The position numbers were made by a program, and so were the translations under genes. A stretch of DNA of 64,000 nt. Source: Escherichia coli. GTDB taxonomy: Bacteria > Pseudomonadota > Gammaproteobacteria > Enterobacterales > Enterobacteriaceae. The notes below the pieces were generated by a model that did not search any database, was not told where the DNA came from, and worked only from the letters and a program-made list of their open reading frames with translations. The DNA lies in the NCBI RefSeq assembly GCF_002854065.1, contig NZ_CP024147.1, one strand, 5' to 3'. Positions 712 to 42,200 of the stretch are shown here, one piece after another. Positions within the stretch are counted from its first letter, which is position 1; the number at the start of each line of letters is the position of its first letter.

Positions 712-1338
712 ATGAAAAAGATTTGGCTGGCGCTGGCTGGTTTAGTTTTAGCGTTTAGCGCATCGGCGGCGCAGTATGAAGATGGTAAACAGTACACTAC
801 CCTGGAAAAACCGGTAGCTGGCGCGCCGCAAGTGCTGGAGTTTTTCTCTTTCTTCTGCCCGCACTGCTATCAGTTTGAAGAAGTTCTGCATATTTCTGAT
901 AATGTGAAGAAAAAACTGCCGGAAGGCGTGAAGATGACTAAATACCACGTCAACTTCATGGGTGGTGACCTGGGCAAAGATCTGACTCAGGCATGGGCTG
1001 TGGCGATGGCGCTGGGCGTGGAAGACAAAGTGACTGTTCCGCTGTTTGAAGGCGTACAGAAAACCCAGACCATTCGTTCTGCTTCTGATATCCGCGATGT
1101 ATTTATCAACGCAGGTATTAAAGGTGAAGAGTACGACGCGGCGTGGAACAGCTTCGTGGTGAAATCTCTGGTCGCTCAGCAGGAAAAAGCTGCAGCTGAC
1201 GTGCAATTGCGTGGTGTTCCGGCGATGTTTGTTAACGGTAAATATCAGCTGAATCCGCAGGGTATGGATACCAGCAATATGGATGTTTTTGTTCAGCAGT
1301 ATGCTGATACAGTGAAATATCTGTCCGAGAAAAAATAA
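712..1338 (+). CDS. dsbA: Periplasmic thiol:disulfide oxidoreductase DsbA
   Basis: 208-aa ORF with signal peptide and FCPHC active site; RBS GGAGAG upstream. Confidence 0.97.
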
Positions 1339-1356
1339 TTCAATGTAAATTACATA

Positions 1357-1388
1357 AAGCCCGTGAATATTCACGGGCTTTTTTTATT
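1357..1388 (+). terminator. Rho-independent terminator of dsbA
   Basis: GC hairpin aaagcccgtgaatattcacgggcttt followed by T-run. Confidence 0.8.
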
Positions 1389-1451
1389 ATTTAATAGGTG
1401 ATGCTGCCAACTTACTGATTTAGTGTATGATGGTGTTTTTGAGGTGCTCCA

Positions 1452-1727
1452 GTGGCTTCTGTTTCTATCAGCTGTCCCTCCTGTTCAGCTACTGACGGGG
1501 TGGTGCGTAACGGCAAAAGCACTGCCGGACATCAGCGCTATCTCTGCTCTCACTGCCGTAAAACATGGCAACTGCAGTTCACTTACACCGCTTCTCAACC
1601 CGGTACGCACCAGAAAATCATTGATATGGCCATGAATGGCGTTGGATGCCGGGCAACCGCCCGCATTATGGGCGTTGGCCTCAACACGATTTTCCGCCAT
1701 TTAAAAAACTCAGGCCGCAGTCGGTAA
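1452..1727 (+). CDS. insA: IS1 InsA (transposition repressor)
   Basis: 91-aa [19 protein letters not shown]... zinc-finger/HTH typical of InsA. Confidence 0.95.
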
Positions 1728-2149
1728 CCTCGCGCATACAGCCGGGCAGTGACGTCATCGTCTGCGCGGAAATGGACGAACAGTGGGGATACGTCGGGGC
1801 TAAATCGCGCCAGCGCTGGCTGTTTTACGCGTATGACAGGCTCCGGAAGACGGTTGTTGCGCACGTATTCGGTGAACGCACTATGGCGACGCTGGGGCGT
1901 CTTATGAGCCTGCTGTCACCCTTTGACGTGGTGATATGGATGACGGATGGCTGGCCGCTGTATGAATCCCGCCTGAAGGGAAAGCTGCACGTAATCAGCA
2001 AGCGATATACGCAGCGAATTGAGCGGCATAACCTGAATCTGAGGCAGCACCTGGCACGGCTGGGACGGAAGTCGCTGTCGTTCTCAAAATCGGTGGAGCT
2101 GCATGACAAAGTCATCGGGCATTATCTGAACATAAAACACTATCAATAA
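1646..2149 (+). CDS. insB: IS1 InsB (transposase catalytic part, expressed as InsAB' by -1 frameshift)
   Basis: 167-aa ORF in -1 frame relative to insA, overlapping its 3' end. Confidence 0.93.
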
Positions 2150-2164
2150 GTTGGAGTCATTACC

Positions 2165-2665
2165 GAGTTTTTCTCTTTCTTCTGCCCACACTGCTATCAG
2201 TTTGAAGAAGTTCTGCATATTTCTGATAATGTGAAGAAAAAACTGCCGGAAGGCGTGAAGATGACTAAATACCACGTCAACTTCATGGGTGGTGACCTGG
2301 GCAAAGATCTGACTCAGGCATGGGCTGTGGCGATGGCGCTGGGCGTGGAAGACAAAGTGACTGTTCCGCTGTTTGAAGGCGTACAGAAAACCCAGACCAT
2401 TCGTTCTGCTTCTGATATCCGCGATGTATTTATCAACGCAGGTATTAAAGGTGAAGAGTACGACGCGGCGTGGAACAGCTTCGTGGTGAAATCTCTGGTC
2501 GCTCAGCAGGAAAAAGCTGCAGCTGACGTGCAATTGCGTGGTGTTCCGGCGATGTTTGTTAACGGTAAATATCAGCTGAATCCGCAGGGTATGGATACCA
2601 GCAATATGGATGTTTTTGTTCAGCAGTATGCTGATACAGTGAAATATCTGTCCGAGAAAAAATAA
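2165..2665 (+). pseudogene. dsbA: Partial duplicate of dsbA (3' 501 nt, lacks start codon and signal peptide)
   Basis: Near-identical to window 838-1338 (one synonymous difference ccg/cca in CPHC codons); begins abruptly at IS1 right end. Confidence 0.9.
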
Positions 2666-2683
2666 TTCAATGTAAATTACATA

Positions 2684-2715
2684 AAGCCCGTGAATATTCA
2701 CGGGCTTTTTTTATT
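2684..2715 (+). terminator. Duplicated copy of dsbA terminator
   Basis: Same hairpin plus T-run as 1357-1388. Confidence 0.75.
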
Positions 2716-2819
2716 ATTTAATAAATATAAATACATTCTGATAATGCATCCTGCCGCTGGACATTATTTCAGCATAAGTGGATATTCAAAGTTTTGCTGT
2801 TTTATCAGGGAATATTTAT

Positions 2820-5586: not shown

Positions 5587-8373
5587 ATGGTTCAGATCCC
5601 CCAAAATCCACTTATCCTTGTAGATGGTTCATCTTATCTTTATCGCGCATATCACGCGTTTCCTCCGCTGACTAACAGCGCAGGCGAGCCGACCGGTGCG
5701 ATGTATGGTGTCCTCAACATGCTGCGCAGTCTGATCATGCAATATAAACCGACGCATGCAGCGGTGGTCTTTGACGCCAAGGGAAAAACCTTTCGTGATG
5801 AACTGTTTGAACATTACAAATCACATCGCCCGCCAATGCCGGACGATCTGCGTGCACAAATCGAACCCTTGCACGCGATGGTTAAAGCGATGGGACTGCC
5901 GCTGCTGGCGGTTTCTGGCGTAGAAGCGGACGACGTTATCGGTACTCTGGCGCGCGAAGCCGAAAAAGCCGGGCGTCCGGTGCTGATCAGCACTGGCGAT
6001 AAAGATATGGCGCAGCTGGTGACGCCAAATATTACGCTTATCAATACCATGACGAATACCATCCTCGGACCGGAAGAGGTGGTGAATAAGTACGGCGTGC
6101 CGCCAGAACTGATCATCGATTTCCTGGCGCTGATGGGTGACTCCTCTGATAACATTCCTGGCGTACCGGGCGTCGGTGAAAAAACCGCGCAGGCATTGCT
6201 GCAAGGTCTTGGCGGGCTGGATACGCTGTATGCCGAGCCAGAAAAAATTGCTGGGTTGAGCTTCCGTGGCGCGAAAACAATGGCAGCGAAGCTCGAGCAA
6301 AACAAAGAAGTTGCTTATCTCTCATACCAGCTGGCGACGATTAAAACCGACGTTGAACTGGAGCTGACCTGTGAACAACTGGAAGTGCAGCAACCGGCAG
6401 CGGAAGAGTTGTTGGGGCTGTTCAAAAAGTATGAGTTCAAACGCTGGACTGCTGATGTCGAAGCGGGCAAATGGTTACAGGCCAAAGGGGCAAAACCCGC
6501 CGCGAAGCCACAGGAAACCAGTGTTGCAGACGAAGCACCAGAAGTGACGGCAACGGTGATTTCTTATGACAACTACGTCACCATCCTTGATGAAGAAACA
6601 CTGAAAGCGTGGATTGCGAAGCTGGAAAAAGCGCCGGTATTTGCATTTGATACCGAAACCGACAGCCTTGATAACATCTCTGCTAACCTGGTCGGGCTTT
6701 CTTTTGCTATCGAGCCAGGCGTAGCGGCATATATTCCGGTTGCTCATGATTATCTTGATGCGCCCGATCAAATCTCTCGCGAGCGTGCACTCGAGTTGCT
6801 AAAACCGCTGCTGGAAGATGAAAAGGCGCTGAAGGTCGGGCAAAACCTGAAATACGATCGCGGTATTCTGGCGAATTACGGCATTGAGCTGCGTGGGATT
6901 GCGTTTGATACCATGCTGGAGTCCTACATTCTCAATAGCGTTGCTGGCCGTCACGATATGGACAGCCTCGCAGAACGTTGGTTGAAGCACAAAACCATCA
7001 CTTTTGAAGAGATTGCGGGTAAAGGCAAAAATCAACTGACCTTTAACCAGATTGCCCTCGAAGAGGCCGGACGTTACGCCGCCGAAGATGCAGATGTCAC
7101 CTTGCAGTTGCATCTGAAAATGTGGCCGGATCTGCAAAAACACAAAGGGCCGTTGAACGTCTTCGAGAATATCGAAATGCCGCTGGTGCCGGTGCTTTCA
7201 CGCATTGAACGTAACGGTGTGAAGATCGATCCGAAAGTGCTGCACAATCATTCTGAAGAGCTTACCTTGCGTCTGGCTGAGCTGGAAAAGAAAGCGCATG
7301 AAATTGCAGGTGAGGAATTTAACCTTTCTTCCACCAAGCAGTTACAAACCATTCTGTTTGAAAAACAGGGCATTAAACCGCTGAAGAAAACGCCGGGTGG
7401 CGCGCCGTCAACGTCGGAAGAGGTACTGGAAGAACTGGCGCTGGACTATCCGTTGCCAAAAGTGATTCTGGAGTATCGTGGTCTGGCGAAGCTGAAATCG
7501 ACCTACACCGACAAGCTGCCGCTGATGATCAACCCGAAAACCGGGCGTGTGCATACCTCTTATCACCAGGCAGTAACTGCAACGGGACGTTTATCGTCAA
7601 CCGATCCTAACCTGCAAAACATTCCGGTACGTAACGAAGAAGGTCGCCGTATCCGCCAGGCGTTTATTGCGCCAGAGGATTATGTGATTGTCTCAGCGGA
7701 CTACTCGCAGATTGAACTGCGCATTATGGCGCATCTCTCGCGTGACAAAGGCTTGCTGACCGCATTCGCGGAAGGAAAAGATATCCACCGGGCAACGGCG
7801 GCAGAAGTGTTTGGTTTGCCACTGGAAACCGTCACCAGCGAGCAACGCCGTAGCGCGAAAGCGATCAACTTTGGTCTGATTTATGGCATGAGTGCTTTCG
7901 GTCTGGCGCGGCAATTGAACATTCCACGTAAAGAAGCGCAGAAGTACATGGACCTTTACTTCGAACGCTACCCTGGCGTGCTGGAGTATATGGAACGCAC
8001 CCGTGCTCAGGCGAAAGAGCAGGGCTACGTTGAAACGCTGGACGGACGCCGTCTGTATCTGCCGGATATCAAATCCAGCAATGGTGCTCGTCGTGCAGCG
8101 GCTGAACGTGCAGCCATTAACGCGCCAATGCAGGGAACCGCCGCCGACATTATCAAACGGGCGATGATTGCCGTTGATGCGTGGTTACAGGCTGAGCAAC
8201 CGCGTGTACGTATGATCATGCAGGTACACGATGAACTGGTATTTGAAGTCCATAAAGATGATGTCGATGCCGTCGCGAAGCAGATTCATCAACTGATGGA
8301 AAACTGTACCCGTCTGGATGTGCCGTTGCTGGTGGAAGTGGGGAGTGGCGAAAACTGGGATCAGGCGCACTAA
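5587..8373 (+). CDS. polA: DNA polymerase I
   Basis: 928-aa ORF with 5'-3' exonuclease, 3'-5' exonuclease and polymerase motifs; DnaA-box-like ttatccaca in upstream region. Confidence 0.98.
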
Positions 8374-8520
8374 GATTCGCCTGAACATGCCCTTTTTTCG
8401 TAAGTAAGCAACATAAGCTGTCACGTTTTGTGATGGCTATTAGAAATTCCTATGCAACAACTGAAAAAAAATTACAAAAAGTGCTTTCTGAACTGAACAA
8501 AAAAGAGTAAAGTTAGTCGC

Positions 8521-8629
8521 GTAGGGTACAGAGGTAAGATGTTCTATCTTTCAGACCTTTTACTTCACGTAATCGGATTTGGCTGAATATTTTAGCCGCC
8601 CCAGTCAGTAATGACTGGGGCGTTTTTTA
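8521..8629 (+). ncRNA. spf: Spot 42 small RNA
   Basis: Sequence gtagggtacagaggtaagatgttctatctttcagacc...gccccagtcagtaatgactggggcgtttttta matches Spot 42 including its terminator. Confidence 0.93.
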
Positions 8630-8650
8630 TTGGGCGAAAGAAAAAATCCG

Positions 8651-8740
8651 CAATGCCTGATGCGCCATGTTTATCAGGCCAACGGTAGAATTGTAATCTA
8701 TTGAATTTACGGGCCGGATACGCCACATCCGGCACAAGCA
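8651..8740. repeat. REP (repetitive extragenic palindromic) elements
   Basis: gcctgatgcgc...cttatcaggcc and gccggata...catccggc palindromic units. Confidence 0.8.
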
Positions 8741-8754
8741 TTAAGGCAAGAAAA

Positions 8755-9387
8755 TTATTCGCCGTCCTGCGTTTCTTCTACAGGCTGCATCTCGCTAAAC
8801 CAGGTATCCAGTTTCTGCCGCAGCTTGTCCACGCCTTGTTTCTTCAGCGAAGAAAACGTTTCAACCTGCACATCACCGTTAAACGCCAGCACCGCTTCAC
8901 GCACCATATTCAATTGCGCTTTACGTGCGCTACTTGCCAGTTTGTCCGCTTTGGTCAGCAGTACCAACACGGCGATATTGCTGTCTACCGCCCACTCAAT
9001 CATCTGCTGATCCAAATCTTTCAGCGGATGGCGAATATCCATTAGCACTACCAGACCTTGTAGGCTCTGACGTTTTTCGAGGTACTCGCCGAGCGCGCGC
9101 TGCCATTTGCGCTTCATCTCTTCCGGGACTTCCGCATAACCGTACCCAGGCAAGTCAACCAGACGCTTGCCGTCAGCCACTTCAAACAGGTTGATAAGCT
9201 GGGTGCGTCCTGGGGTTTTTGAGGTACGAGCCAGGCTTTTCTGGTTAGTCAGCGTGTTCAGCGCGCTGGATTTACCTGCGTTGGAACGGCCTGCAAAAGC
9301 CACTTCAATTCCGGTATCGGAAGGTAGGTGGCGAATATCAGGCGCACTCATCACAAAATGCGTCTGTTGATAATTCAAATTAGTCAA
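8755..9387 (-). CDS. engB: Ribosome biogenesis GTPase EngB (YihA)
   Basis: 210-aa ORF with [10 protein letters not shown]-loop and G-domain motifs. Confidence 0.95.
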
Positions 9388-19550: not shown

Positions 19551-19605
19551 GGTGATGCTGCCAACTTACTGATTTAGTGTATGATGGTGTCTTTGAGGTG
19601 CTCCA

Positions 19606-19881
19606 GTGGCTTCTGTTTCTATCAGCTGTCCCTCCTGTTCAGCTACTGACGGGGTGGTGCGTAACGGCAAAAGCACTGCCGGACATCAGCGCTATCTCTG
19701 CTCTCACTGCCGTAAAACATGGCAACTGCAGTTCACTTACACCGCTTCTCAACCCGGTACGCACCAGAAAATCATTGATATGGCCATGAATGGCGTTGGA
19801 TGCCGGGCAACCGCCCGCATTATGGGCGTTGGCCTCAACACGATTTTCCGCCATTTAAAAAACTCAGGCCGCAGTCGGTAA
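19606..19881 (+). CDS. insA: IS1 InsA
   Basis: Identical 91-aa product. Confidence 0.95.
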
Positions 19882-20303
19882 CCTCGCGCATACAGCCGGG
19901 CAGTGACGTCATCGTCTGCGCGGAAATGGACGAACAGTGGGGATACGTCGGGGCTAAATCGCGCCAGCGCTGGCTGTTTTACGCGTATGACAGGCTCCGG
20001 AAGACGGTTGTTGCGCACGTATTCGGTGAACGCACTATGGCGACGCTGGGGCGTCTTATGAGCCTGCTGTCACCCTTTGACGTGGTGATATGGATGACGG
20101 ATGGCTGGCCGCTGTATGAATCCCGCCTGAAGGGAAAGCTGCACGTAATCAGCAAGCGATATACGCAGCGAATTGAGCGGCATAACCTGAATCTGAGGCA
20201 GCACCTGGCACGGCTGGGACGGAAGTCGCTGTCGTTCTCAAAATCGGTGGAGCTGCATGACAAAGTCATCGGGCATTATCTGAACATAAAACACTATCAA
20301 TAA
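19800..20303 (+). CDS. insB: IS1 InsB
   Basis: Identical 167-aa product. Confidence 0.93.
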
Positions 20304-20318
20304 GTTGGAGTCATTACC

Positions 20319-21306: not shown

Positions 21307-21427
21307 TTAATGGCCGGATGTGCTTAATCCGGCCAAAAAAAATCCGCTGAATCCCCAGCGGATTTTTCGAAGTTTCAATTTCAGGATACTTCTTGCTCGG
21401 CAACTACCAGTTCAACATTCTCTTCAC

Positions 21428-21790
21428 TTAACAACTGGCAGAAAGAATTGGGAGGCGGGGCATCAGTAAAAAAAGCCCTGACATTCCGTGCATTGCCAAC
21501 GCTACCGCGCCGTGAAAAACATCGCCTGCTCCAGTCGTATCAACCACATTGACAGAAAATGCATCCTGTTGACACAAATGATCATCTTTAATCCACAATG
21601 AATCTTCAGAACCCAGCGTGACATACACTTTACCCGCAGTTTGTGTCGTTGCCTGGTACAAACCTTCTTCAGGTGACTGCAGGCCAGTCATGCGTTTCCG
21701 CCCTGGCGTTGAGAACACGGCGTGATCAGTAAGCGCGACAAGTGGATAAATATCCTGCGGTGTCATATCGTCGCTGGTTATCGAAACTCG
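21428..21790 (-). pseudogene. Remnant of pfkB-family sugar kinase (yihV-like sulfofructose kinase)
   Basis: Reverse-strand ORF contains VDTTGAGDVFHGA pfkB signature but lacks N-terminal half and has a non-native C-terminus. Confidence 0.55.
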
Positions 21791-21955
21791 TTGGCAATTT
21801 ACACCTGAATCTTAACCATTCATCTATTGCGAAAAAGCCAGTGAAATTACTCTGCTTTTTCGCAATCAGCATCACAAGATTACCCTTATTGCCACATAGC
21901 CAAACCCATCCTTTCCCGCTACAGTTAATTTCTTGTGGCGCGAAAGGAGGCAAAA

Positions 21956-35450: not shown

Positions 35451-36506
35451 ATGAAAAGGAATTTATTATCTTCCGCTATTATAGTCGCCATCATGGCCCT
35501 CGGTCTGACGGGTTGTGATGATAAAAAAGCCGAAACAGAAACGCCCCCGCCTGCCAATAGTCAACCTGCCGCACCAGCTCCTGAAGCGAAACCTACTGAA
35601 GCTCCCGTTGCAAAAGCAGATGCTAAACCTGAAACACCTGCGCAACCGGTGGTCGATGAACAAGCGGTTTTCGACGAAAAAATGGATGTCTATATCAAGT
35701 GCTACAACAAGTTACAGATCCCTGTACAGAACAGTCTGGCGCGTTATGCTGACTGGCTGAAAGATTTTAAACAGGGGCCAACGGGTAAAGAGAGCCTTGT
35801 TTATGGCATCTACGGCATTAGTGAATCCAATCTCTCTGAGTGTCAAAAAGGAATAAAAAGAGTCGTGGCGTTAACGCCTGCGCTGCAACCTATTGATGGC
35901 GTGGCGGTGAGTTATATTGATGCTGCCGTGGCGTTGGGTAATACCATTAACGAAATGGATAAATATTACACCCAGGAAAATTATAAAGACGATGCGTTTG
36001 CGAAAGGGAAAACGCTGCACCAGACATTCTTAAAAAATCTGGAAGCCTTTGAACCTGTAGCAGAATCTTATCATGCGGCGATTCAGGAAATTAATGATAA
36101 GCGCCAGCTTGCGGAACTGAAAAATATTGAAGAAAGAGAAGGGAAAACATTCCACTACTACTCTCTGGCAGTCATGATTTCAGCGAAACAAATTAATAAC
36201 CTGATATCGCAAGAGAAGTTTGATGTTGATGCGGCAATGAAGAAAGTCTCTGAACTGGAAACGCTGGTAGCGCAGGCCAAAGAAGCGGATAAAGGCGGTA
36301 TGAATTTCTCGTTCATTAATTCGGCAGACCAGTATCAACTCGAGACTAAAAAATATGTTCGCCGCGTCAGAGATAAAGTCCCGTACTCTGACTGGGATAA
36401 AGAGCATCTTCAGGATGCAAACACAAGCTGGATGGTCGAAGACTCATTTCCACGAGCGTTACGCGAGTACAACGAAATGGTTGATGACTATAATAGCCTG
36501 CGTTAA
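35451..36506 (+). CDS. yiiG: Lipoprotein YiiG (DUF3829)
   Basis: 351-aa ORF with lipobox LTGC. Confidence 0.9.
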   Translation: MKRNLLSSAIIVAIMALGLTGCDDKKAETETPPPANSQPAAPAPEAKPTEAPVAKADAKPETPAQPVVDEQAVFDEKMDVYIKCYNKLQIPVQNSLARYADWLKDFKQGPTGKESLVYGIYGISESNLSECQKGIKRVVALTPALQPIDGVAVSYIDAAVALGNTINEMDKYYTQENYKDDAFAKGKTLHQTFLKNLEAFEPVAESYHAAIQEINDKRQLAELKNIEEREGKTFHYYSLAVMISAKQINNLISQEKFDVDAAMKKVSELETLVAQAKEADKGGMNFSFINSADQYQLETKKYVRRVRDKVPYSDWDKEHLQDANTSWMVEDSFPRALREYNEMVDDYNSLR

Positions 36507-36556
36507 ACGTTTTTGATGATAAATGCAGTGTCGGATGCGGCGCATCCGACACAGTT

Positions 36557-36993
36557 CACCCCTTGTGAAGTAACTCCATAAATGCCTCATATCCTGTTAA
36601 CCCGGCAATAACTTCTGCCGGATGCTGACACAATACGCTTGCCAGATAGCTGAATATTTTTAGCTCATGACGCGCATCGGCGGCGGCGCAGGCGATCAAA
36701 ACATGGTTAATGACTTCGTTATTCACCTCAACTGATTGGGCGAGGGTAATAAAAAATCCACGAAAACGTCGCTCCTGTTCGCTCCAGCAATGTGGGATGG
36801 CGAGGCGATTAACAATCAGGTTTTCACCTTCGCCTTCGCGGGCGATGATCCGTTGCGCTTCATCGGCGGTAATATGGTGTTGTGCGACTAATTGCGCACA
36901 AATTTGCCGGGTAATATGTTGCCAGCTTTCACCGCGTACATTCGAATAATGAAAACTTCCGGGGGCAGAGAAAAAACGCTCCGGTTGCTGGCG
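36557..36993 (-). pseudogene. frvR: frvR C-terminal fragment (PTS EIIA-like domain), 5' part removed by IS1
   Basis: Reverse-strand translation ...LIACAAADARHELKIFSYLASVLCQHPAEVIAGLTGYEAFMELLHKG*; interrupted by IS1 at 36994. Confidence 0.7.
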
Positions 36994-37008
36994 GGTAATG
37001 ACTCCAAC

Positions 37009-37512
37009 TTATTGATAGTGTTTTATGTTCAGATAATGCCCGATGACTTTGTCATGCAGCTCCACCGATTTTGAGAACGACAGCGACTTCCGTCCCAGCC
37101 GTGCCAGGTGCTGCCTCAGATTCAGGTTATGCCGCTCAATTCGCTGCGTATATCGCTTGCTGATTACGTGCAGCTTTCCCTTCAGGCGGGATTCATACAG
37201 CGGCCAGCCATCCGTCATCCATATCACCACGTCAAAGGGTGACAGCAGGCTCATAAGACGCCCCAGCGTCGCCATAGTGCGTTCACCGAATACGTGCGCA
37301 ACAACCGTCTTCCGGAGCCTGTCATACGCGTAAAACAGCCAGCGCTGGCGCGATTTAGCCCCGACGTATCCCCACTGTTCGTCCATTTCCGCGCAGACGA
37401 TGACGTCACTGCCCGGCTGTATGCGCGAGGTTACCGACTGCGGCCTGAGTTTTTTAAATGGCGGAAAATCGTGTTGAGGCCAACGCCCATAATGCGGGCG
37501 GTTGCCCGGCAT
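37009..37512 (-). CDS. insB: IS1 InsB
   Basis: Identical 167-aa product on minus strand. Confidence 0.93.
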
Positions 37513-37706
37513 CCAACGCCATTCATGGCCATATCAATGATTTTCTGGTGCGTACCGGGTTGAGAAGCGGTGTAAGTGAACTGCAGTTGCCATGTTTTAC
37601 GGCAGTGAGAGCAGAGATAGCGCTGATGTCCGGCAGTGCTTTTGCCGTTACGCACCACCCCGTCAGTAGCTGAACAGGAGGGACAGCTGATAGAAACAGA
37701 AGCCAC
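37431..37706 (-). CDS. insA: IS1 InsA
   Basis: Identical 91-aa product on minus strand. Confidence 0.95.
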
Positions 37707-37761
37707 TGGAGCACCTCAAAAACACCATCATACACTAAATCAGTAAGTTGGCAGCATCACC

Positions 37762-39063
37762 ATACGTCCCGAGGTAAATATTAAAGTTCTCCATATCCAT
37801 CACATTAGCGAACTGATAAGACGCATGAATGGTGTGAATGGTGTACGTCCCTTCATCATCAATCCAGCAGTCGTTATCACAAACTACACCGCTGAATTCA
37901 TCAATCTTATTGTGCGCGTAGATATAACCGAGCTCGAAACGTTTCCACAGCGCGTTAATCCCGGCAGTGAAATCTTTCTCATTATTAGCATCTAAATAGG
38001 CGGTATTAAGATTAACCACAATGCCATTGTCCGGATCCGTTTTCAGGCCGTTCCAGGTCATGCTCATACCATAGCCGGTACGATCGGACTGATCGACAAA
38101 ATTACCCTTGCTATCGGTATAACCATAAGCATTATTTACCACGTTCGCTTCCATCGCTGCGGAAACGGTGAATTCTTCCGTCGGCGACCAGGCAATTACT
38201 GGGCGCAGATAAGCAACATTTTTCTGCTGCTCCATATCGCGTCCATGATAATTACCGTCATTATATAAAGATGTTCCGTCTTCAAGTAACGTATTTAATT
38301 CAAAATACCAGTTATCGAGTTGTTTGCTGACGAGGAAATTACCGCCAGCGTTAGAGCGCCCGCGGCCCTCTTTCATCATATAGATATAACCGCTGCCATC
38401 GTCATAAAGATCGTTCGCAGTATTACCGGAATGTTCAACAAAGGTATCCTGATTCAGCGGGAACATATCGTAGGCTTCAAAACGGCCTACTTTGACCTTC
38501 CAGTCGTTTTCTTTGCCAAAGAAGAATACCGCATCATCGATATTTACTGAACCGTGCATATCACCCAGCGGTTGTGCGGAGAACCCGGCGAAATAACCGT
38601 TGTCCATCTTTCGCATACCGTCAAAACCTAACAGAATACGACCATTGAGATTCCACTGTTCATTAGTGGGATCGCTATTCACATCAGCGTTGGTCATTGC
38701 CAGCAGGCCATGATTACTTTCCGCATCCATATTAAATTCTACGTCGCCGTAGATTTTTAAATCGCCATAACCTGAAAGCAAAAGATTAGGTGAGGTGGCA
38801 TTTTTCTTTGCAGATTCCGTCGTTGCCTGTCCATTTACCGGCGTATTGCCCTGAGCGGCCTTAATTTCGCGGATCTCAGCGGCTTGTTGTGTCTGCAGCT
38901 GTTTAACCTGGCTCTCTGCTTTTGCTGCCCGCATTTCTGCCGCTTCCAGGCGTTCTTCCAGCAATGCCATGCGTTGTTCCAGCGTTAAATGCTGTGTTTT
39001 TGCCATACCGGTACTACATGCCAATAATAAACCGATGGCTAAAGATAATGTCGATTTTTTCAT
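37762..39063 (-). pseudogene. LamB/ScrY-family carbohydrate porin with N-terminal coiled-coil extension, 3'-truncated by IS1
   Basis: Signal peptide MKKSTLSLAIGLLLA, coiled-coil LEQRMALLEERLEAAEMRAAKAESQVKQLQ, then aromatic-rich beta-barrel-like sequence; ORF runs into IS1 (terminal GDAANLLI is IS1-encoded). Confidence 0.6.
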
Positions 39064-39540
39064 TATTTACGTTCCCTGAAATAAAGGAGGCCCTACGCTT
39101 TCCAAAAGGAATACGTATATAGAGAAATATAAAGTGTGCACTTTCGAATTTTTAATCCAACTTCAGCAGGCCGATGGATAGTATCCCGCCGCATAATATG
39201 AGTAAATCCGCTGATTTCCTGGAACGTGAGGAATATAACAATAGTGCCGTTTTTAACTAAATATCGTAAAAAATATTAGATATGATTCACGCTGACTCAT
39301 AAGCCACAAATATAAATAATGTTTAGACAAATTATCTGAGACATTTAAACATTCACAAAATCATTAAAGAATGATTTTTTATTCACAAGATTTATTTTAC
39401 CTACTAATATGTGCCTTACGCCGCAAAATTTATCCTTCACTCTGCTTTATATTGTCACGACTTCACGACATATCCGCGCTCATCACAAACCCGCCCCGCT
39501 ATTACAATTAACGTAAATATTTTTTCATGGAGTCCGATTA

Positions 39541-39694
39541 ATGGCAGCTCTTACTGCAAGCTGTATTGACCTGAATATTCAGGGCAATGGCACTTATTCC
39601 ATTCTGAAACAGTTAGCGACAATGGCGTTACAAAACGGTTTTATCACCGACTCACACCAGTTCCTGCAAACCCTGCTGCTGCGCGAAAAAATGC
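39541..39694 (+). pseudogene. frvA: frvA 5' fragment (PTS fructose-like EIIA), truncated by IS1 and on opposite strand from frvR fragment
   Basis: Translation MAALTASCIDLNIQGNGTYSILKQLATMALQNGFITDSHQFLQTLLLREKM then IS1. Confidence 0.75.
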
Positions 39695-39749
39695 GGTGAT
39701 GCTGCCAACTTACTGATTTAGTGTATGATGGTGTTTTTGAGGTGCTCCA

Positions 39750-40025
39750 GTGGCTTCTGTTTCTATCAGCTGTCCCTCCTGTTCAGCTACTGACGGGGTG
39801 GTGCGTAACGGCAAAAGCACTGCCGGACATCAGCGCTATCTCTGCTCTCACTGCCGTAAAACATGGCAACTGCAGTTCACTTACACCGCTTCTCAACCCG
39901 GTACGCACCAGAAAATCATTGATATGGCCATGAATGGCGTTGGATGCCGGGCAACCGCCCGCATTATGGGCGTTGGCCTCAACACGATTTTCCGCCATTT
40001 AAAAAACTCAGGCCGCAGTCGGTAA
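39750..40025 (+). CDS. insA: IS1 InsA
   Basis: Identical 91-aa product. Confidence 0.95.
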
Positions 40026-40447
40026 CCTCGCGCATACAGCCGGGCAGTGACGTCATCGTCTGCGCGGAAATGGACGAACAGTGGGGATACGTCGGGGCTA
40101 AATCGCGCCAGCGCTGGCTGTTTTACGCGTATGACAGGCTCCGGAAGACGGTTGTTGCGCACGTATTCGGTGAACGCACTATGGCGACGCTGGGGCGTCT
40201 TATGAGCCTGCTGTCACCCTTTGACGTGGTGATATGGATGACGGATGGCTGGCCGCTGTATGAATCCCGCCTGAAGGGAAAGCTGCACGTAATCAGCAAG
40301 CGATATACGCAGCGAATTGAGCGGCATAACCTGAATCTGAGGCAGCACCTGGCACGGCTGGGACGGAAGTCGCTGTCGTTCTCAAAATCGGTGGAGCTGC
40401 ATGACAAAGTCATCGGGCATTATCTGAACATAAAACACTATCAATAA
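39944..40447 (+). CDS. insB: IS1 InsB
   Basis: Identical 167-aa product. Confidence 0.93.
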
Positions 40448-40604
40448 GTTGGAGTCATTACCGGGACGTATTACTCCATTCTGGATAGCGACGGCGATAA
40501 AAAACACGGTGATGATACTGATGACCGTTACGGCGCACGCGTTCGCTTTAAATACTTCTTCTGATGAAGGCGCGGTGCTGGATATTTTCCGGCACCGCAA
40601 CTCA

Positions 40605-40919
40605 TTAAGGCAGGTAAAACACTTCTTGCAGCTCGCTACTCACCGGGCTGTTATCCGGGTTAGCTGGCATAACGTCGGTCATATATTTCCACCAACGTTG
40701 GCAGATTTCAGTGCTGGCTACCGCATTCCACCGTTCTTCAGATTCAATCTCTACCATGGCAAACAGCAGATTACGCGCTTTGTCGAGGTAAATGGCGTAG
40801 TTATGCGCACCGTGAGATTTCAACACTGCTTCCAGTTCCGGCCAGATGGGGTTATGCCGACGCTGATACTCTTCGTGGGCGTCGGGGTTAACCTGCATGA
40901 CAAAGGCTTTGCGGATCAT
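40605..40919 (-). CDS. rhaM: L-rhamnose mutarotase
   Basis: 104-aa [33 protein letters not shown]. Confidence 0.95.
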
Positions 40920-40928
40920 GTTTGCTCC

Positions 40929-41753
40929 TTACAGCGCCAGCGCACTGGCTAGTGGTGTAACGCCGAAGCGCTTGCCGAGCGCTATCAACTCTTCACGGCT
41001 GATGGTCTGTTTCATGCCGCCCATCGAATAAATCTTCACTAATACTTGTGCTGATTTTTCTGCGGTGTCGATTAAACCGAATGTTTCATCCAGCGTCGGT
41101 CCGGAACCGAACACACCGTGGAAGGGCCACAACACCAGCGAATGTTTCTGCATCTCTTGTGCGGTCGCCTGGCCGATTTCGTCCGTGCCGGGCACCATCC
41201 ACGGCAGAATGCCAACGCCATCCGGGAATACCACCAGACACTCGGTGCTGCCTTCCCACAGTTGGCGAGTAAAGACCGCGGTGTCGTTTTCCAGTACATA
41301 GGTGAGGGCGATCAGGTTGGTGGCGTGGCAGTGCATGATCACCCGATCTTTACCGTTGGTGGCTTTAATGCGCTCGCAGTGGGAGAGAAAGTGAGCCGGA
41401 AGTTCAGAAGTTGGAACGGCTTCGTTGGTTAACCCCCAGAGAATATGGTAGCCCGCGCCGTCGCTGTCGACTTTTACGACGCCTAAGTTAGCTGCAGGAT
41501 CAAGCTGGACGTTACGGAAGAATTTGCCGGAGCCGGTGACAATAAACGGCGTATTTGCCAGTAAAGGCATGGGCTGGCTGAGCGGAATATAGCGCGGTTG
41601 TGGGTGGAAGTTGTCGTGATAAAGCGCGATATCGGCGTCATCCAGGCGCAGCGTCAGGTTGCCGCCGTTGCGCTCGTCCCAGCCTTTCAGCCAGGCATCG
41701 GTGGTGGCTTTGATCATTCCCTGGACAAACCAGGACTGGGTAATGTTTTGCAT
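40929..41753 (-). CDS. rhaD: Rhamnulose-1-phosphate aldolase
   Basis: Start chosen at [32 protein letters not shown] (274 aa). Confidence 0.95.
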
Positions 41754-41789
41754 GTTCTGTGTTCCTGTAAATTCGGTGTTGTCGGATGC

Positions 41790-42195
41790 ACGACCCGTAG
41801 GCCGGATAAGGCGCTCGTGCCGCATCCGGCAATCAATGCCTGATGCGACGCTGTCGCGTCTTATCAGGCCTACAACTATTGCCGACCTGTAGGCCGGATA
41901 AGGCACTTGTGCCGCATCCGGCAATCAATGCCTGATGCGACGCTGTTGCGTCTTATCAGGCCTACAACTGTTGCCGACCTGTAGGCCGGATAAGGCACTT
42001 GTGCCGCATCCGGCAATCAATGCCTGATGCGACGCTGTCGCGTCTTATCAGGCCTACAACTATTGCCGACCTGTAGGCCGGATAAGGCACTTGTGCCGCA
42101 TCCGGCAATCAATGCCTGATGCGATGTCGCGTCTTATCAGGCCTACAACTGTTGCCGACCTGTAGGCCGGATAAGGCACTTGTGCCGCATCCGGC
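41790..42195. repeat. BIME/REP tandem array in rhaD-rhaA intergenic region
   Basis: About 4.5 tandem units containing gtaggccggataaggcacttgtgccgcatccggc and gcctgatgcgacgctgtcgcgtcttatcaggcc palindromes. Confidence 0.9.
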
Positions 42196-42200
42196 AGTGT

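Follow-up and report, generated by a model that had tools for sequence, protein, structure and literature searches.

Introduction

RafY is the glycoporin of the raffinose plasmid pRSD2 (Ulmke et al. 1997 and Andersen et al. 1998, via PMC4827864 and PMC4809568), and PMC4827864, which also quotes Andersen et al. on it, places it in TCDB family 1.B.15, a sister of the sugar-porin family, with an estimated 16 strands. For E. coli O157:H7, PMC4809568 describes a chromosomal rafY homologue, annotated rafY2, in a genome without rafRABD.

Here, we analysed a 64-kb stretch of E. coli DNA (the window) in which a truncated porin reading frame lies between two copies of IS1. We consider it highly probable that a native RafY-type porin gene was split by IS1, that its front part was then inverted and the neighbouring frv operon mostly deleted, and that an ordinary pseudogene is what remains. 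Inversions and adjacent deletions caused by IS1 are classical results of intramolecular replicative transposition, and are familiar from the IS-rich genomes of Shigella and enteroinvasive E. coli.

Results

Protein family and predicted structure of the porin

The open reading frame at 37735..39063 (minus strand) encodes 442 aa comprising a signal peptide, a predicted 44-residue helix and a β-barrel. Codons 1-434 (37762..39063) are porin, and IS1 entered after codon 434. A sequence-only reading of the same DNA had given the gene as 37762-39063, which fits the porin-derived portion of the frame exactly, and had described a signal peptide, a coiled-coil and a barrel-like porin region whose 3' end is cut by IS1. 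This description is borne out by the Pfam assignment (Porin_8), by the helix and barrel of the AlphaFold2 model and by the exact IRL match of IS1 at 37723..37761. The family that it had named, ScrY/LamB-like, was mistaken: the truncated frame matches Porin_8, 'porin-like glycoporin RafY' (PF16966), with an E value of 2.4e-144 over model positions 1-341 of 372, whereas the LamB family (PF02264) gave no Pfam match at E <= 10 in the porin and none in 35 relatives. When the frame was rejoined with 40472..40561, the Porin_8 match extended over the entire model (positions 1-372 of 372; E 2.7e-153), and all of the near-full-length relatives (35/35) carry the same match. A search of the porin against NCBIfam returned no family, leaving Pfam alone to name it.

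The family is small: a search of 1.84 billion sequences gave 236 representatives at E <= 1e-3. Its members are mostly 350-390 aa long and align only from about residue 97, so the helical extension is an add-on of a subset. Residues 27-54 gave a sub-threshold Pfam match to Sugarporin_N, the profile of the ScrY-type extension in the periplasm (PF11471; E 0.055), which is significant in one of the 35 relatives (5.9e-07) and reaches 0.1 or below in four. Hydrophobic residues at positions 28/32/35/39/42/46/49/53/56 fit the a/d positions of a heptad pattern when the sequence is read by eye.

The RafY/Porin_8 family appears to be without a solved structure, judging from a PDB sequence search with the porin that returned nothing below an E value of 0.5, and a fold comparison was used in its place. 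The AlphaFold2 model, computed from the 35 relatives with a mean pLDDT of 83.3, contains a helix at residues 28-71 (pLDDT about 89), a disordered linker at 75-99 and a barrel at 101-463 with about 16 long strands, among them 427-440 and 450-463. The 18-stranded barrel of LamB and ScrY was not found in this porin. Near the C-terminus, at least 90% of the 35 relatives share R459 and F464, and Y462 is invariant. The intact porin is predicted to be a 16-stranded barrel that bears a coiled-coil stalk on the periplasmic side; its homology to RafY predicts a wide channel for oligosaccharides.

A close relative is the porin encoded by the raf operon of plasmid p98190, which shows 79% identity and 86% positives over 450 aa and sits downstream of genes for a LacI-family regulator, an alpha-galactosidase, an MFS permease and a GH32 protein. 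No linkage to rafRABD was found for the chromosomal gene. Its neighbours are rhaM and frvABXR, and it is therefore a paralogue rather than RafY itself. The gene neighbourhoods of two distant relatives (P0016 and P0021) provided no useful context.

Architecture of the rearranged locus

The features of the locus are collected in Table 1. The left and right IS1 are identical at 768/768 positions and mutually inverted, each encoding InsA (91 aa) and InsB' (167 aa). Their identity as IS1 is established by the length of 768 bp, the terminal inverted repeats, the insA/insB' frames and the 9-bp duplication GGGACGTAT. The window contains four IS1 copies.

Table 1. Coordinates of the split porin gene and its surroundings in the window
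Feature	Coordinates	Strand	Remarks
frvR 3' remnant	36556..36993	-	438 bp; C-terminal 145 codons and stop; ends at outer (IRR) end of left IS1
IS1, left copy	36994..37761	-	768 bp; insA 37431..37706, insB' 37009..37512; exact IRL match 37723..37761
IS1-encoded tail of the 442-aa frame	37735..37761	-	GDAANLLI and stop; from ORF translation; IRL end of IS1
IS1 target-site duplication, copy 1	37762..37770	-	ATACGTCCC on + strand, GGGACGTAT in gene sense; codons G432-T433-Y434
RafY-type porin gene, 5' part	37762..39063	-	codons 1-434; signal peptide, helical extension, barrel strands 1 to mid-15; Pfam Porin_8 and alignment to L001
Divergent porin/frvA intergenic region	39064..39540	.	477 bp, 34.6% GC; native, kept whole; same spacing in 33F4
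frvA 5' fragment	39541..39694	+	51 codons and 1 nt; inverted along with the porin part; matches L001 frvA; 86.8% to K-12 frvA
IS1, right copy	39695..40462	+	768 bp; insA 39750..40025, insB' 39944..40447; exact IRL match 39695..39733
IS1 target-site duplication, copy 2	40463..40471	+	GGGACGTAT, 9 bp
Porin 3' end	40472..40564	+	last 30 codons YSILDSDGDKKHGDDTDDRYGARVRFKYFF and stop; native orientation; 40 bp from rhaM stop
rhaM	40605..40919	-	intact native right-hand neighbour

The porin 5' part is reversed relative to its native orientation. The inner segment 37762..39694 is 99.6% identical to positions 7000..8932 of the locus in E. coli 33F4 (L001) and aligns in the orientation opposite to both flanks, revealing that the porin 5' part, the spacer and the start of frvA were inverted between the two IS1. 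Within it, the promoter region, the start codon, the signal peptide and the 434 codons are intact and free of frameshifts. The sequence-only reading had correctly seen a frvA fragment divergent from the porin across an AT-rich spacer; the length of 478 bp that it gave for the spacer is one too many.

The missing C-terminus (...RYGARVRFKYFF, then stop) adjoins the second IS1, and 40463..40567 translates as GTY followed by YSILDSDGDKKHGDDTDDRYGARVRFKYFF and two stop codons. The missing strands thus lie beside another IS1, the right copy, where the sequence-only reading had proposed to look for them. Joining 37762..39063 to 40472..40561 restores a 464-aa protein whose sole difference from WP_000749940.1 is A82T. 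The native gene holds GGGACGTAT once (L001 7000..7008), and the DNA from 40463 to 41000 is 99.8% identical to L001 7008..6471.

To the left of the left IS1, the window is collinear with K-12 (36400..36993 against 4087951..4088544, 96.8% identity; frvR occupies 4088107..4089855 in K-12) up to a gap of 4125 bp, K-12 4088545..4092669, which covers frvA from codon 52, frvB, frvX and the first three quarters of frvR. On its outer sides, the IS1-porin'-frvA'-IS1 unit has TTGCTGGCG and GGGACGTAT, which form no direct repeat; it therefore did not arrive as a composite transposon. A transposon of the Tn9 or Tn1681 type, considered as a candidate for the unit, was rejected on these flanks and on the cargo, which is the native porin and frvA.

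Beyond the right IS1, the rhaA-rhaD intergenic region (41787..42196) contains tandem REP-like units of about 92 bp, with staggered self-matches to K-12 4094306..4094718. These units are normal for the locus.

The native locus across E. coli

In E. coli 33F4, the native order is rhaB, rhaA, rhaD, rhaM, porin, a 477-bp spacer, frvA, frvB, frvX, frvR and yiiG. The porin of this strain, annotated 'carbohydrate porin' by PGAP (464 aa, WP_000749940.1), is convergent with rhaM; the porin starts at L001 position 8301 and frvA at 8779. At least 80% of the porin part is present in 2555 of the 5426 complete E. coli genomes, and porin and frvA (37763..39696, megablast) were found together in 2543/5426, the best DNA identity in this set being 99.6-99.8%. 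Between rhaM and frvA, the porin is thus a common and polymorphic resident, carried by about half of E. coli.

K-12 MG1655 differs in this interval. As the sequence-only reading had stated, it has no porin between frv and rha; the frvA-rhaM gap is 300 bp, of which 132 bp can be aligned to the porin-bearing spacer (75% identical) and the other 168 bp are unrelated to it. A simple deletion could not have produced the K-12 arrangement, because 168 of the 300 spacer bp are unrelated, and the two haplotypes differ by replacement. Between the haplotypes, the start of frvA (154 nt) together with the 132 bp before it (39408..39694 against K-12 4092670..4092955) is 86.8% identical, compared with 96-99% for the flanking genes around the frvA start. 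This difference links the presence or absence of the porin to a frvA-promoter haplotype that is old and divergent. In the megablast search, 2994 records fall at 80-90% identity.

The sequence-only reading had regarded the porin as foreign to this locus, and the 2555 genomes that hold it in the same slot contradict that claim. A foreign origin, either elsewhere in the genome or by acquisition, for example as cargo of an IS1 composite transposon, would accord with the missing porin of K-12, with the formal resemblance of the IS1-porin'-frvA'-IS1 unit (1.9 kb between inverted IS1) to such a transposon, and with a GC content of 45% in the porin and 35% in the spacer against 50% in the window. However, the detached 3' end is still native in position and orientation beside rhaM, the supposed cargo includes the frvA 5' end and the native spacer, and the two copies of the 9-bp duplication lie at the inner-left and the outer-right junction, as is characteristic of an insertion followed by an inversion. 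Together with the distribution of the gene across E. coli, these observations make a foreign origin barely credible.

The IS1 insertion itself looks lineage-specific, since the insertion-site region is present in 2548 genomes (120-bp probe, at least 80% coverage, possibly summed from more than one piece). The exact porin-IS1 junction had no single-piece match in the 5426 complete RefSeq E. coli genomes; the best rows of that search came from IS1 copies elsewhere in the porin gene or close to it, or from a plasmid rafY beside IS1.

Order of events

Further assemblies retain parts of the arrangement. Three contigs (L006, L007 and L013) are 100% identical to the window over 37734..39694, including the junction between porin and IS1, and then run into frvA; one of them (L006) has full-length frvA, frvB and frvX alongside this junction. 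Since these assemblies still have frvA, and one of them also frvB and frvX, the insertion of IS1 into the porin gene preceded the other events. Three other contigs (L008, L010 and L011) contain both inner junctions of the window at 100% identity. E. coli CUWW06 has the same 438-bp frvR remnant and IS1 junction, 100% identical over 36000..37761.

IS1 first inserted into the porin gene after codon 434 and duplicated GGGACGTAT. We propose that inversion-type intramolecular replicative transposition of this IS1 into the frv operon, or else a second IS1 insertion and recombination, would then have inverted the front of the gene, and that an IS1 adjacent deletion would finally have removed 4125 bp of frv. 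Two orders would be equally short: an inversion into frvA followed by a deletion to frvR, or an inversion into frvR and then a deletion that reached back as far as frvA codon 52. The deletion also took away the target duplications on the frv side, so that more than one route may have led to the present arrangement.

Two independent insertions of IS1 in opposite orientation, the first of them into the porin gene and the other into either frvA or frvR, could also have given rise to the locus if recombination between them inverted the segment before the adjacent deletion, with no transposition-inversion involved. Here, the 768 bp of IS1 identity would be a good RecA substrate, the genome is rich in IS1 (four copies in 64 kb), and other independent IS1 insertions occur in the rhaM-frvA interval of relatives. 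This route nevertheless needs one event more than transposition-inversion, and an intermediate in which a simple IS1 in frvA or frvR keeps its own duplication (in frvA, this would be a direct AAAAAATGC) was not found. We regard it as rather unlikely.

Whichever route applies to the split porin gene, the two IS1 copies are identical and inverted, and the 1.9-kb segment between them can consequently flip by recombination. The orientation seen in the window may be one of two isomers, or it may have been set by the assembly of the 3.5-kb repeat-bounded unit; the short contigs support the junctions of the 1.9-kb segment, not its orientation.

Fate of the truncated product

In the AlphaFold2 model, the cut after residue 434 falls inside the predicted strand 427-440, and strand 450-463 is lost. 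The truncated product thus ends halfway through strand 15 and has neither strand 16 nor the C-terminal ...RFKYFF, which includes R459, Y462 and F464. A C-terminal aromatic residue is required for the assembly of outer-membrane proteins, a requirement that Struyve and colleagues are said to have established in 1991. Having lost one and a half strands together with its C-terminal Phe signal, and with eight IS1-coded residues at its end, the product is most likely non-functional; the BAM complex would most likely fail to insert it, leaving it to be degraded.

GenBank lists the exact 442-aa product as AUJ94179.1, 'porin [Escherichia coli]', and 72 blocks of public assemblies also record it. Both the many assemblies in which this gene is called and the unbroken frame, intact from the promoter region to codon 434, could be taken to mean that the truncated frame is still useful, as a 442-aa porin variant or as a periplasmic coiled-coil protein. 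Such a use is very improbable given the missing half of strand 15, the missing strand 16 and the loss of the invariant or near-invariant residues R459, Y462 and F464; close relatives have, moreover, destroyed or lost the porin gene in other ways, consistent with its dispensability. The truncated frame is thus most likely a pseudogene fragment, whose lack of function we infer from these features. It may still be transcribed, its promoter region being intact.

Two relatives show what became of the gene elsewhere. In CUWW06 (L014, NZ_CP182139.1 217817..219104), a deletion extends from the frvR'-IS1 junction through the porin gene, rhaM, rhaD, rhaA, rhaB, rhaS and rhaR into rhaT. In strain 100416 (L015, NZ_CM128593.1 4879627..4882067), an independent lesion has put IS1 in place of the N-terminal part of the porin and frvB is frameshifted; elsewhere in the window this strain is 100% identical. 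Shigella loses 'antivirulence' surface proteins, and the three different lesions of the same gene (in the window, 100416 and CUWW06) make counter-selection of the porin possible. Nonetheless, we consider it improbable that the loss was selected rather than neutral in this IS1-rich lineage, for example because phages or colicins used the porin as their receptor or because it was a surface protein of the 'antivirulence' kind. The locus most likely represents a dead gene in an IS1-rich, decaying E. coli lineage.

Other features of the window

The two remaining IS1 copies lie at a distance from the porin. On either side of the IS1 at 1397..2164, the same 559 bp of the dsbA region occur as a direct duplication (838..1396 and 2165..2723, both corresponding to K-12 4043544..4044102), with a full copy of dsbA to the left of the element and a 5'-truncated second copy to its right; this duplication is far longer than an IS1 target duplication. 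The fourth IS1, at 19551..20318, differs from the other copies by 1 mismatch and lies where 1442 bp of K-12 (4061083..4062524) are deleted, a loss that removes the 3' end of yihL, yihM and the 5' end of yihN.

At 21347..21888, the sulfoquinovose cluster (ompL and yihO to csqR; K-12 4063552..4075485, about 11.9 kb) is absent and replaced by about 540 bp of kinase and DeoR-regulator remnants. Among complete E. coli genomes, 38 cover at least 80% of a 1.3-kb stretch over this deletion; CUWW06 (99.9%) and 100416 (99.8%) come closest.

Between fabY (yiiD) and yiiE, a 2046-bp segment absent from K-12 holds a 615-aa reading frame (25218..27065, plus strand) annotated 'hypothetical protein'. It is at least 80% present in 1061 E. 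coli genomes and gave no match in Pfam or NCBIfam. It contains CKSAKDRT, a CX5R motif resembling the active site of IpgD/SopB-type inositol phosphatases; going by this motif, the protein could be an uncharacterised phosphatase or effector-like protein.

Discussion

The locus is a clean textbook case of IS1 insertion, inversion and adjacent deletion, and an intermediate survives in other assemblies. An annotation is due as a split pseudogene of a chromosomal RafY-type 'carbohydrate porin', with its 5' part at 37762..39063 and its 3' part at 40472..40564, and the frv operon should likewise be annotated as largely deleted. The case further illustrates how poorly K-12 serves as a reference for which genes 'belong' at a locus, given that about half of E. 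coli carry the porin there. The intact gene is a chromosomal paralogue placed divergently beside the cryptic frv PTS operon. Beyond correct annotation, the finding is of little importance. Nothing new is involved: a known gene has been inactivated by well-known IS1 mechanisms.

Compared with plasmid-borne RafY, the rejoined porin has the same length of 464 aa, 79% identity, the N-terminal LTLEQRMALLEERLEAAE helix and the C-terminal RFKYFF, and its predicted 16 strands agree with the TCDB estimate given in PMC4827864. Unlike RafY, it is chromosomal, is located between rhaM and frvA and not after rafRABD, and is split by IS1. With ScrY and LamB (PF02264, TCDB 1.B.3), the porin shares the predicted general plan of an outer-membrane β-barrel oligosaccharide channel, and ScrY too has an N-terminal periplasmic coiled-coil. 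DcaP of Acinetobacter baumannii (PDB 6eus), at 11% identity, belongs to another family.

In relation to WP_000749940.1, the chromosomal 'carbohydrate porin' of E. coli, this is the same gene with the same neighbours, the rejoined protein differing by A82T only; unlike at that locus, the gene is broken after codon 434, its 5' part is inverted and the adjacent frv operon is mostly deleted. In its 768-bp IS1, 9-bp target duplication, inverted IS1 bounding the inversion and deletion starting at an IS1 end, the porin locus resembles the classical IS1 rearrangements, and set against those inversions and adjacent deletions it shows nothing out of the ordinary.
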